DNA of 64,000 bases from Escherichia coli (GTDB lineage Bacteria > Pseudomonadota > Gammaproteobacteria > Enterobacterales > Enterobacteriaceae): assembly GCF_003018235.1 (NCBI RefSeq), contig NZ_CP027437.1; one strand, given 5' to 3'. The position numbers and the translations under genes are program-made. Shown piece after piece: positions 17,044-24,444 of this stretch. The first letter of the stretch is position 1. Each line of letters opens with the position of its first letter. Under the pieces are notes generated by a model, which was not told the DNA's origin, did not search any database, and was given only the letters and a program-made list of their open reading frames with translations.

Positions 17044-20000
17044 TCAGAACGACCAGTTCGCACCAGCCACCGCGTTCCATGGGGATTCCACACCGGCACC
17101 ATGGCTATACCCCACCCCGAGATGCCCGCTTAACGAACTGCTGAATGAGGCTTTAATACCTGCCTGATATATTCCACGTCTGCCCGACAAATCATTGACA
17201 AAATTACCGTCATTATTCACTTTTACCCGGTTATCATCGACAAATTCTTTGCGCACAGCCACCTTCAGCCACGGCTCAACTTCCATGCCGTTCCCCAGAC
17301 GCATGTTGTAACTCAGCGTTGCGCCCAGTTCACGATATATACTGCGGGTATCGACTGATTTCGATTCCATGCCATTGGATAAATGATATTCGGGGTTATC
17401 AGCGGTGAACCCCGTTAACGATGCATACGGCGTCAGGTTCCAGTTACCATCGGTAAATCGCATCCCGGTTTCAATGTGACCGCCCAGCCCGTTGCTGCGA
17501 TAACTGCCGTTGGCGGCTCCACCGCTGCTCATTTTACCGGCTACGTTACTTTCAAAACGGTTCAGCTTCACGATACCGTCCAGATAGAAACCACTTTCAT
17601 GTTCCCAACTGGCATAGCCGCCCAGAGAATAACTGCCCACACTGCCATGACCTCCGCGATCAAAACCGATATGTGAATGGGAATAACCCATAAAAGCGCC
17701 CAGCGTGGCAATTCCTTCTGGAATATCATTACGGCTGTCGATCCCCACTGTCATTCCGATCAGCGTCTGCTCAAACCCGGCACCCGCATCGGTGGTGACA
17801 TTATTACGGGTGTTATACGTCGCCCCCCAGACATTATTGTTGTGTGGACTCGCTTTCATTATGTTCAACCGCTCGCGAATACTGTTTAGCTCAGCATCAA
17901 AGACCAACGGTAATGTTGCTGCCATATTGAGTACAGCTGCCGTAGAAGGCGTGATGCGTTTCTCCGGAACGGGTGTCGGCGTTGGATCGGGAGTCGGGTC
18001 TGGATTTGGATTTGGATTTGGATTTGGATTTGGGTTTGGGTTTGGGTTTGGGTTCGGGTTTGGGTTTGGGTTCGGGGTCGGGTTCGGGTTCGGGGTCGGG
18101 GTCGGGTTCGGGTTCGGGTTCGGGTTCGGGTTCGGATTTGGATTTGGGTTGACATCATTAGTCAGGTTCCAGTTGCTGTTGCCGTCGCTTTTCAGGACAT
18201 ACTCATAGGTCCCAAGATCAACGAAACCGCCGGTATTGCCCAGCGTAAACGACGCATCCCCTCCCCCTGTTTTCACCAGCGTCATCGCATCGTCAGACTG
18301 AGGGCTGACGCCGGTATCCTGAACAAAGATTTTAAAATTACCAGTGGCGTTGTTGTTGACGACCAGTTGATCGCCCCGGGAGCCTGCAATGTTGGTATGC
18401 AGGTAGAAATTACCGCTGCCGGAAAGTTCACTGGTGGTCAGCGTATTGTAGATACCGTTAGTTGTGGCAGGCGCTGATAAATAAACATCACCGTCGTTGA
18501 GTAGCAAACTGTTTACTCTATATTCGCAGTTGCTGGTGCCTGCACAGGAATTATTGCTGTTAAGCCAGACACTGCCCCGGCTGGCAGCCGTCAGGTCGGC
18601 AAGCGTCGTATCAACGCCATTGCCGATAGTGAATGTCGCGCTATCGGTAATCCGGATCGCCCCTTCGAGTTTAACTGGCGTAACATTATCCCGTGGCGTC
18701 ATTAACGACAGGCTTCCTGTCGCGCCACTGACCGATGCATCCGCCAGCGTACCTGCGTAGACGATTGCTGTCCCGCCAGCAACCTGGAGATCTTCTGCCC
18801 GGGCCAGAGCCTGAAACTCATCTTTTGACCGCCCAAGGGTATATTGCCCACCAGAGTTAACCTTTGTGGCGGAGTCCTGACCCAGGTTTTGCATTGCACC
18901 ACCCTTGTCAACCGTGGAGTCACGGGCTTCGGTACCTGCTAATACCAATAAATTACCGCCATTTTCCAGCAACATATTGGTCGCTAAATTGCTGGCAATG
19001 GAAAAGGTGCCGTACTGGTGCGTACCGCTGATTTCAATACCGTTAGCCGTGCTCGTCTGGAGAGCGGCACCGCTGTTCTGGACGATATCTGTCGCTTTGC
19101 CATTATCGTTGACTGTCAGCGTTCCGCCTTCATTGATCGTTGTTTTTATTGCCACTCCGTTAGCTGAAACTGTTTGTATTCCGCCGTCGTTAATTGTTGT
19201 CTCATTTGCCACACCCTCGACGATTTGTTCACCGCCAGTGAGCGTCGTGCCTGTCGCAGTGGCTTTTGTTTTGACGATCTCCCGACCGCCCGCATTGACC
19301 TGTGTTTTGGCGGAAGTGGTGTCTGACTCCACGGTTAACACGCCGCCATTTGTCAGCAGGATATTGTTCGCCGCACCCTGCTCGATGCTGAACGCGACGC
19401 CATCAGCGCGTGTCCCTGTGACCCGCGTCGCCCTGGTGGTTGCAACCAACGCGCCCTGACTACTCTGCTGTATCCCCGTTGCGCTGCCTTTCTCCCGCAC
19501 ATCGAGTATGCCGCCATTGTTAAGTCTGGTGGTATATGCTACGGCCTCCTCGTGGACAATCAGCTTACCGCCAGCATCAACGATGGTATCTACCGCCGAG
19601 GTTTGAGCTACGACCGTCAGTTGGCCGGTATTTTCCAGCACAACATGCTCAGCCCTGCCTCCGGTAATAGTGAAGTGAGATGACCTCTGGTATCCATCAA
19701 TATCAGTCCCCGCGCCCGTATTGGCAACTAAAGCGCTCCCCGTGTCCAGGTAAACCCCATGTGCGATACCGCCGGTATCGACAATCAGCGTGCCTCCGGC
19801 GCGAATATTGCTGCCAGTTGCCGTACCTCCTTTCTCAACAACCTGCTTGCTCCCGGAAGAGATATTTGTTGTGTCAGCTTTCCCGCCGCTCTTGATATTT
19901 TGCGTGCCACTGTTGATATTGGTTCCCGTAGCAATACCATGATTATAAATATTCTGTGTACCGCCATTAATTATGGTATTAGTCGCGTTCCCGGCAACAT

Positions 20001-24444: not shown

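Follow-up and report, generated by a model that had tools for sequence, protein, structure and literature searches.

Intact AIDA-I-type autotransporter genes in Escherichia coli at the positions of the degraded K-12 genes ycgI and ycgH

Introduction

YpjA of Escherichia coli K-12 (b2647, 1526 amino acids), the counterpart of EHEC EhaD, reportedly takes part in adhesion and biofilm formation and has been grouped with the self-associating autotransporters (PMC3796261, PMC9289746, PMC12547504). Its gene, of about 4.6 kb, lies beside ypjF and the remnant of a pin-like recombinase. The autotransporters Ag43, AIDA-I and TibA have passengers built of AIDA, or strand-loop-strand, repeats; a heptosyltransferase gene (aah or tibC) belongs to AIDA-I and TibA, and a cluster of GATC sites lies upstream of Ag43. 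The ECIAI39_1904 family adhesin is encoded at the same locus as ycgH, one of the two genes described here.

Both genes lie on the minus strand of a 64,000-nucleotide stretch of an E. coli genome (contig NZ_CP027437.1), hereafter called the window, on either side of ymgI-ymgG-ymgD, and both are uninterrupted. The ORF listing and the Pfam domains agree in this with the original prediction that complete autotransporter ORFs of 1130 and 887 amino acids flank ymgG-ymgD. We read them as ordinary, intact, classical type Va autotransporters of the AIDA-I type at a locus in decay throughout E. coli, and give this explanation as a whole, function included, a probability of roughly 0.7. The identity and integrity of the two genes, taken alone, are close to certain.

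Layout of the locus

The genes and elements of the locus, in window positions, are as follows.

17004..17028, minus strand: intrinsic terminator of ORF1, CUGCGC-UUCG-GCGCAG and then UUUUCGUUU (fold -17.9 kcal/mol, z -5.7)
17044..20436, minus strand: ORF1, a 1130-aa AIDA-I-type (type Va) autotransporter and YpjA/EhaD paralogue, at the position of the K-12 ycgI stub
20437..20820, minus strand: leader and promoter region of ORF1, paralogous to the ypjA upstream region by nucleotide alignment
20501-20620: 39-codon ORF in the ORF1 leader
20581-20766: ymgJ, in the ORF1 leader region (annotation)
20867-21040, plus strand: ymgI, between the autotransporter genes and divergent from ORF1
21042-21386, plus strand: ymgG, likewise
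21390-21725, plus strand: ymgD, likewise
21738..21764: hairpin common to the convergent 3' ends of ymgD and ycgH (-19.3 kcal/mol, z -5.3)
21781..24444, minus strand: ORF2, intact YcgH, an 887-aa type Va autotransporter (ORF and exact protein match)
25194-26717: pdeG, beyond the ycgH side of the autotransporter pair

ORF1 is located between minE and ymgJ, its neighbours being minE, the 39-codon ORF, ymgJ and ymgI, and ycgH is located between ymgD and ymgF, colinear with K-12 ycgH. The BluR/PdeG/YcgZ-YmgAB cluster, which had been predicted to adjoin the pair, does so: pdeG is in the window, and ymgC-ariR-ymgA-ycgZ-bluR-bluF also lie beyond the pair, as seen in orthologous annotated loci. Folding placed terminator hairpins directly after the stop codons of both genes. 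Promoter-like hexamers were found upstream of ORF1 at 20827->20799 and at 20701->20674. An Ag43-like Dam/OxyR phase switch was considered and rejected, since 19280-20982 contains no GATC, nothing like the Ag43 cluster lies upstream of ORF1, and upstream of ycgH there are only two GATC sites, 153 bp apart. A search with Rfam gave nothing at the gathering threshold in 14000-28000 and one match only, at chance level, in 16600-17100.

The K-12 remnants

The original prediction placed disrupted ycgI and ycgH at these same positions in K-12, and alignment bore this out, resolving the first into a deletion stub and the second into a pseudogene with a stop codon and a frameshift. JM83 was used as the K-12 comparison strain, and the lesions were mapped base by base. 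K-12 lacks window 17389-20465, a stretch of 3,077 bp with which ORF1 loses its ribosome-binding site, its start codon and 90% of its coding sequence. What is left, ycgI (b1173), corresponds to the last 345 bp of the ORF1 gene, at the same position and 94.8% identical. The ends of the deletion share only a single base at the junction, thus the deletion was not mediated by a repeat. The B2 strain N54 has the same 17389..20465 deletion, with a junction identical to that of K-12. Of note, the 3' sequence of the ycgI stub does not tell its parent, as ORF1, ypjA and the stub itself share 94-97% identity over this part. Three lesions mark K-12 ycgH, which is flagged in RefSeq as 'frameshifted; internal stop': 15 bp are deleted in frame (codons 117-122), codon 507 of the K-12 copy is a stop, and one base is missing at ORF nucleotide 2589. 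The window copy has the same position and orientation, is 97% identical at the nucleotide level, and shows none of these three lesions.

K-12 ycgI and ycgH are degraded derivatives, the remains of real autotransporter genes that are intact in a minority of E. coli. Because intact copies survive outside K-12, adhesin inventories that are based on K-12 names under-count such strains.

Architecture of the two proteins

The longest open frame at ORF1 spans 17044..20565 on the minus strand, 1173 codons from an upstream GTG. We took the ATG at 20436 (MNRISR...) as the start, as RefSeq does for the orthologues, which gives 1130 residues; GAGGA with an 8-nt spacer lies 5' of this ATG. In the signal peptides below, a slash marks the predicted cleavage site.

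17113..17832, minus strand: beta-barrel translocator of ORF1 (PF03797, residues 912-1151 of the 1173-codon frame)
17996..18150: hexanucleotide tandem repeat, 25.8 copies (TRF), encoding an (Asn/Thr-Pro)n linker
18517..20346, minus strand: passenger of ORF1 with AIDA / strand-loop-strand repeats (Pfam, NCBIfam and PDB sequence matches)
20347..20436, minus strand: predicted signal peptide of ORF1, MNRISRYYFHRSVLSLLIAAMIYAPPGMTA/F (by eye: basic N-terminus, hydrophobic core, Ala at -1)

Pfam found AIDA six times (280 bits), Pertactin PF03212 (E 1e-46) and the Autotransporter barrel PF03797 in ORF1, and NCBIfam the TIGR01414 barrel and the TIGR04415 repeat, the latter in six stretches (128 bits versus a cut-off of 30). 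Sequence matches in the PDB were Ag43, TibA, an AidA-I family adhesin, the BrkA barrel and pertactin, with the passengers of the Ag43, AIDA-I and TibA type, which share the repeats with ORF1, as the best ones (E about 1e-29). However, ORF1 scores 186 bits for the Ag43/Cah family of NCBIfam and 158 bits for AIDA-I, versus a cut-off of 1200 for each, and no heptosyltransferase gene adjoins it. With a signal peptide recognized by eye, a beta-helical passenger, an autochaperone and a barrel that ends in Phe (...NWSF), the protein appears to have the full type Va layout. ORF1 aligned end to end with three annotated orthologues, and the linker is the sole part that varies in length among the orthologues compared (gene lengths 3351-3405 bp), all changes being in frame.

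The corresponding features of YcgH are listed here.

21850..22629, minus strand: beta-barrel of YcgH (PF03797 residues 606-865; strands of the structural model 605-886)
22776..24376: passenger segment of ycgH that is replaced by divergent sequence in the ECIAI39_1904 family allele
24376..24444, minus strand: signal peptide of YcgH, MKLKKLPGFSLGLIALAVGNAYA/T (by eye from the translation; model residues 1-38 pLDDT <50)

The ORF2 protein is letter-for-letter the NCBI/UniRef 'autotransporter YcgH', and near-identical (99-100%) 887-aa proteins of this name are found on >1000, 721 and 140 contigs. Pfam recognized AC_1 PF18883 (E 4e-29), Pertactin and the Autotransporter barrel, and no AIDA-type repeats. 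The TIGR01414 barrel of NCBIfam is found in this protein as well. The type Va layout is again complete: signal peptide (by eye), beta-helical passenger, autochaperone, helix plus barrel, and a terminal Phe (...KYKF). Hidden frameshifts, named in the original prediction as what would overturn it, were not found: ORF2 has its exact match, and the ORF1 orthologues align along their whole length.

Distribution, constraint and function

ORF1 is kept in 392 of 5,426 complete E. coli genomes, 308 of which also have a YcgH-type passenger. Four of the 308 were sampled, and three proved to have both genes intact; about 4-6% of the complete genomes share the intact state. In strains 98210, 7/2, YL3 and RIVM_C036569, the orthologues of both genes are annotated by RefSeq as genes and not as pseudogenes; the intact pair is not special to the source strain, and both genes are already known and RefSeq-named. 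The locus is a mosaic: in other genomes it has the degraded K-12 form, deletions of the B2 type, or the exchanged passenger of the ECIAI39_1904 family allele. This family and YcgH have the signal peptide and the C-terminal half in common, with well over 90% identity from autochaperone to barrel versus 45% in the passenger, and megablast-detectable similarity to the ECIAI39_1904 allele ceases between window 22776 and 24376. Most E. coli strains lack ORF1, and most genomes have ycgH as a pseudogene, in a deleted form or as another allele. This widespread loss implies that selection to keep the genes is weak or niche-specific.

Between intact alleles, the dN/dS of ORF1 is 0.10-0.15 over 70-77 synonymous differences, which indicates that the gene is under purifying selection where it survives. 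For ycgH, values of 0.06-0.62 were found, with 0.3-0.6 at the upper end, which correspond to a constraint that is moderate only. Each protein would be exported by Sec via its N-terminal signal peptide, BAM would insert the C-terminal 12-strand barrel in the outer membrane, and the beta-helical passenger would be threaded to the cell surface, with folding beginning at the autochaperone segment. ORF1, with its repeats of the Ag43/AIDA-I/TibA type, would most likely act in surface adhesion or cell-cell aggregation, with the Asn-Pro linker as a length-variable spacer, and YcgH in its undamaged form would display a pertactin-like beta-helix with no enzyme domain. The original prediction spoke of functional adhesins, which is plausible considering the constraint on ORF1 and the reported role of its paralogue YpjA; we judge the chance that the two proteins do function as adhesins to be about even. 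The analysis establishes that the genes are intact, how their domains are arranged, the fold of YcgH, the lesions in K-12 and the distribution across the population, and what we infer is expression, surface display, adhesion or aggregation, and a link to the BluR/PdeG circuit. A search of the literature yielded no functional study and no expression or phenotype data for ORF1 or ycgH. If expressed, the pair would add two lineage-specific surface antigens or adhesins beside a biofilm-regulating cluster, and the importance of this would be small beyond bookkeeping.

The explanation that competes best with ours is that both genes are intact but cryptic, i.e., silenced or unexpressed, near-neutral and simply not yet inactivated as they are in other lineages. 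Independent inactivations are indeed widespread, comprising the stop and frameshift in K-12, two deletions in B2, insertions of IS elements, the frameshifted copy of ETEC1748 and the DEC5B allele with its internal stop. AT-rich DNA is often silenced by H-NS, and the passenger-coding half of ycgH is AT-rich, with a GC content of 37-39% in the 5' 1.4 kb (about 23000 to 24376). In addition, a search of the 400 bp before ycgH gave no sigma-70-like promoter on the coding strand, and the upper dN/dS value of this gene fits a relaxed constraint. However, the low dN/dS of ORF1 argues for purifying selection where the gene is kept, every length change in its hexanucleotide repeat is in frame, and identical 887-aa YcgH proteins occur on >1000 contigs. 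We therefore regard silent, near-neutral genes as possible yet doubtful, and retain the reading of two ordinary autotransporters at a decaying locus.

Relation of ORF1 to ypjA

By its sequence, ORF1 is a shorter YpjA/EhaD paralogue and not an unnamed novelty. The domain order of the two proteins is the same. Their C-terminal 1012 residues are 80% identical, and the 3' 2.5 kb of the two genes is 92.8% identical at the nucleotide level. The nucleotide identity is 93-98% through most of the barrel and autochaperone region and falls to 62.5% at the hexanucleotide-encoded linker, which is particular to ORF1. The leaders are also related, with 86% nucleotide identity overall and 95% over the last ~190 nt, and the ypjA leader has the same 39-codon upstream ORF. 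Colinearity is confined to residues 122-1133 of ORF1 and 578-1526 of YpjA, the former numbered from the ATG at 20445, which precedes the annotated start by three codons. In the divergent genome of Escherichia sp. E1V33, the whole ORF1 module (window 16681-20764) is absent. A 65-nt spacer element, searched as an exact DNA pattern, gave zero matches among species representatives.

These likenesses allow a bolder scenario, in which a segment with ypjA and its leader would have been duplicated in E. coli alone to give the minE-side gene, which purifying selection would then have preserved in just ~7% of the complete genomes. This gene and intact YcgH would make up a lineage-restricted pair of adhesins that alters biofilm formation or colonisation. 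Its translation would be controlled by the leader, through the 39-codon upstream ORF and a long-range stem around the start site, and the Asn-Pro repeat would set how far the protein extends from the cell surface. All of this holding jointly is improbable.

RefSeq names the orthologues of ORF1 ypjA, that of strain 98210 being labelled 'ypjA: adhesin-like autotransporter YpjA/EhaD'. Together with the high nucleotide identity in the barrel and autochaperone region, this might suggest that ORF1 is the true ypjA orthologue, moved beside minE, instead of an extra paralogue. However, where ORF1 is found at the minE locus, the genome has a further match at another place, so ORF1 coexists with ypjA, it sits between minE and ymgJ instead of having the ypjF and pin-like recombinase neighbours of the ~4.6-kb ypjA gene, and it lacks ~390 of the passenger residues of YpjA. 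A relocated orthologue is thus very unlikely, and ORF1 is better treated as a paralogue; the 'ypjA' label on the minE-side gene merges two paralogues in presence/absence studies. A 754-bp stub in the O157:H7 strain Z1626 was also considered as a ycgI variant and rejected, as it is annotated as a truncated ypjA at the ypjA locus.

Fold of YcgH

The AF2 model of YcgH (pLDDT 85.2) predicts an all-beta passenger (43-536), a linker helix (564-578) and a barrel (605-886), and superposes on the AIDA-I transport unit (4mee), pertactin (1dab) and the IcsA autochaperone (3ml3). Foldseek gave a TM-score of 0.94 for 4mee, normalised by target length, an alignment over 620 columns for 1dab and a TM-score of 0.74 for 3ml3. 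The function of YcgH is not directly legible from its sequence, residues 1-365 having no PDB match and residues 1-409 no Pfam match, which leaves room for a secreted enzyme, i.e., a protease- or esterase-type autotransporter, in place of an adhesin. However, the modelled passenger is a continuous beta-helix without a globular catalytic domain, it resembles pertactin and IcsA in structure, Hbp and Hap give poor alignments (rmsd 18), and the match to the esterase EstA is mainly ~300 columns, the size of a barrel, so that an enzyme appears highly improbable.

That the integrity of the genes is an artefact of a hidden frameshift, an assembly collapse in repeats or a wrong start can be dismissed: the 155-bp hexanucleotide repeat could be mis-assembled and the exact ORF1 protein is absent from the protein collection searched, but the independent assembly GCA_014070295.1 agrees with the window over 18.7 kb except for 1 mismatch and for repeat lengths, its ORF1 orthologue differs at 2 of 1120 residues, linker length aside, ORF2 is identical to deposited proteins, and frames of this size (887 and 1130 codons) are far longer than chance would leave open.

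The N-terminal ~400 passenger residues of YcgH had 67 matches among 1.84 billion cluster representatives, many of them fragments. In a peptide-pattern scan, the sole full-length relative of YcgH was found in Escherichia sp. E1V33. The other 15 matches, in Raoultella, Pragia, Gilliamella, Snodgrassella and a metagenome-assembled genome of the Neisseriaceae, begin at residue ~310 or beyond and cover the autochaperone and barrel or the C-terminal part only. In the literature, ycgH is mentioned for the most part by K-12 engineering papers that use it as a neutral integration site, and in one case for a sigma-S ChIP peak.

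Intact autotransporter genes and their neighbourhood

Two long open frames are present on the minus strand of the window, at 17044..20565 and 21781..24444, with ymgG and ymgD between them and the EAL protein PdeG just past them. The first frame has 1173 codons from an upstream GTG and 1130 codons from the start used in annotated orthologues (MNRISR..., ATG at 20436), which is preceded by GAGGA and an 8-nt spacer; the second encodes 887 aa. ORF calls and Pfam domains agree with the original prediction of complete autotransporter genes of these sizes flanking ymgG-ymgD:

17044..20436, minus strand: ORF1, 1130 aa; six AIDA repeats, Pertactin, Autotransporter barrel
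21781..24444, minus strand: ORF2 (ycgH), 887 aa; AC_1 autochaperone, Pertactin, Autotransporter barrel

Phe is the last residue of each protein, and a stable hairpin follows each gene, that of ORF1 being a canonical terminator. The proposed location beside the BluR/PdeG cluster was also found, as pdeG lies in the window and the order in annotated orthologous loci continues with ymgF, pdeG, ymgC, ariR, ymgA, ycgZ, the MerR-type bluR and the BLUF-EAL bluF.

Lesions in K-12 and decay across E. coli

The disruption of both genes in K-12, stated in the original prediction, was borne out. In K-12 JM83, RefSeq lists a 344-bp autotransporter fragment beside minE ('frameshifted; incomplete; missing N-terminus') and flags ycgH as 'frameshifted; internal stop'. 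The lesions were mapped exactly by BLAST and global alignment. Window 17389-20465 (3,077 bp) is missing from K-12, which takes the ribosome-binding site, the start codon and ~90% of the coding sequence of ORF1. Three lesions mark K-12 ycgH: 15 bp deleted in frame, a stop at codon 507 of the K-12 gene and a frameshifting loss of 1 bp at nt 2589. This alignment, suggested as a check for hidden frameshifts, found none of the K-12 lesions in the window copies. The observation of two intact autotransporter genes is confirmed, and both genes are already known and named.

The population counts refer to 5,426 complete E. coli genomes. Of these, 392 had the 8.7-kb locus covered to 80% or more, a level that requires ORF1 to be present, and in 308 the ORF1 5' part occurred together with a YcgH-type passenger. 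Of four genomes sampled at regular intervals along the ranked list of these 308, three carry both genes in intact form, and ycgH is split in the fourth, ETEC1748. The 345-bp stub of K-12 is also found in most other genomes, and the deletion junction in B2 strain N54 is identical to that of K-12 (AAATGATA joined to GTAGCGTC). A 2,664-bp form of ycgH made up 5 of 40 evenly spaced matches, the one checked being annotated as intact, and the 2,648-bp K-12-type pseudogene made up 9 of 40. One strain carries a 2,649-bp form intact and another carries it broken, and the B2 form has two internal deletions. The 'ECIAI39_1904 family' allele at this position, often a pseudogene too, is only 45% identical to YcgH in the passenger, against well over 90% in the C-terminal half. 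Between intact alleles, dN/dS was 0.10-0.15 for ORF1 and 0.06-0.62 for ycgH. The locus is an ordinary case of lineage-specific autotransporter decay.

The ycgH position carries either of two passenger 'cassettes' (YcgH type or ECIAI39_1904 type) on a common signal peptide and C-terminal half, in these regions:

window 22776-24376: passenger cassette
L014 5776-8418: ycgH position
L021 (Escherichia sp. E1V33) 3326-5968: ycgH position

GC content is 37-39% in the variable part between about window 23000 and 24376, versus ~50% in the barrel part. The neighbouring pdeG has decayed as well: RefSeq flags the N54 copy as incomplete, missing the N-terminus (L015 4979-5485), and the ETEC1748 copy as incomplete, with an IS2 transposase gene immediately past it (L020 8427-9735).

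ORF1 and its relation to ypjA

In ORF1, TIGR01414 recognises the barrel, and TIGR04415, the strand-loop-strand repeat, matches six times. The PDB sequences most similar to it are passengers of Ag43, an AidA-I family adhesin and TibA; the BrkA barrel and pertactin match as well. The C-terminal 1012 residues of ORF1 are 80% identical to K-12 YpjA (1526 aa); in nucleotides, identity is 92.8% over the 3' 2.5 kb and ~86% over the 5' end plus 380 bp upstream. ORF1 is a shorter paralogue of ypjA, because genomes with ORF1 beside minE have a second matching place elsewhere. RefSeq names the ORF1 orthologues ypjA despite this paralogy. Only an (Asn/Thr-Pro)n linker varies in length among orthologues, always in frame:

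17996-18150: hexanucleotide repeat coding the ORF1 linker, 25.8 copies

An independent draft assembly (GCA_014070295.1) differs from the window over 18.7 kb by one mismatch and by linker length. O157:H7 strain Z1626 has the true ypjA cut down to a 753-bp 3' fragment (L016 6001-6753) beside a pin-like recombinase remnant; the 4.6-kb ypjA is retained in other O157:H7 and cattle strains.

When each species was scanned through one genome with YcgH peptide patterns, the sole full-length relative outside E. coli was an 880-aa, ECIAI39_1904-like allele in the divergent Escherichia sp. E1V33. The order there is pdeG, autotransporter, ymgD, ymgG, then minE, minD and minC. Nothing at this locus, not even a stub, corresponds to window 16681-20764, which spans ymgJ, the leader, ORF1 itself and the spacer to minE. 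Together with the paralogy of window 17034-20820 to the ypjA locus, this suggests that the module arose in the E. coli lineage as a copy of ypjA inserted into the minE-ymgI gap and was later deleted in most descendants. With a single outgroup, E1V33 may instead have lost the module. In E1V33, the ymgG/ymgI region nearly abuts minE (L021 6985-7164).

YcgH and a possible adhesin function

ORF2 is exactly identical to the NCBI protein 'autotransporter YcgH', and 887-aa proteins 99-100% identical to it are found on >1000, 721 and 140 contigs. PDB sequence relatives cover the C-terminal half only (AIDA-I transport unit, IcsA autochaperone), and the first ~400 residues gave 67 matches, many of them fragments, among 1.84 billion cluster representatives. 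The AlphaFold model, based on an alignment of 23 relatives (pLDDT 85.2), predicts an all-beta passenger, a linker helix (564-578) and a barrel (605-886). Structural matches of the model in Foldseek included the AIDA-I transport unit (TM 0.94), pertactin (aligned over 620 columns) and the IcsA autochaperone; neither model nor Foldseek indicated an enzyme domain. A Cys pair in the passenger (ACSSPGESRTC, residues 194-202, window 23839-23865, minus strand) fits ACSxxxxxxxC, a consensus motif of 23 aligned distant relatives, and lies just ahead of a loop modelled with low confidence (blocks 201-220, pLDDT about 56).

Reviews ascribe to YpjA a role in initial adhesion and biofilm formation and group it with the self-associating autotransporters, the mechanism being unsettled (PMC3796261, PMC9289746, PMC12547504). 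Our literature search found no paper on intact YcgH or the minE-side paralogue. The original interpretation is supported in part; a role as surface adhesin may reasonably be expected of ORF1 and, with less confidence, of YcgH. Among the binding regions listed by a sigma-S ChIP-seq study is one at the ycgH pseudogene of K-12 (PMC4447067); reckoned from K-12 gene spacing, it falls within the 5' half of ycgH, which is AT-rich, and not in the promoter.

Leader of ORF1 and the minE-ORF1 spacer

Over its last ~190 nt, the ORF1 leader shares 95% identity with that of ypjA, more than the 86% in the adjoining coding sequence. Within window 20401-20625 lies a short frame:

20501-20620, minus strand: leader ORF, 39 codons

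An 18-nt inverted repeat (20554-20571 / 20401-20418) pairs this ORF with ORF1 codons 7-12 and encloses the ORF1 ribosome-binding site and start codon (fold z -2.6). The ypjA differences in the 3' arm mostly preserve pairing via G.U wobble; no compensatory changes were found between ORF1 and ypjA.

A 69-codon minus-strand ORF in the minE-ORF1 spacer is not conserved. It overlaps a ~65-nt stretch (window ~16903-16975, plus strand) that has no Rfam match and gave zero hits in an exact-match scan of species representatives, which is odd if that set includes an E. coli. Eight divergent E. coli haplotypes share this stretch without a single difference, while their flanking spacer varies and contains indels. 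The stretch ends in a plus-strand terminator, CCCGCC-GTAACT-GGCGGG followed by a T run.
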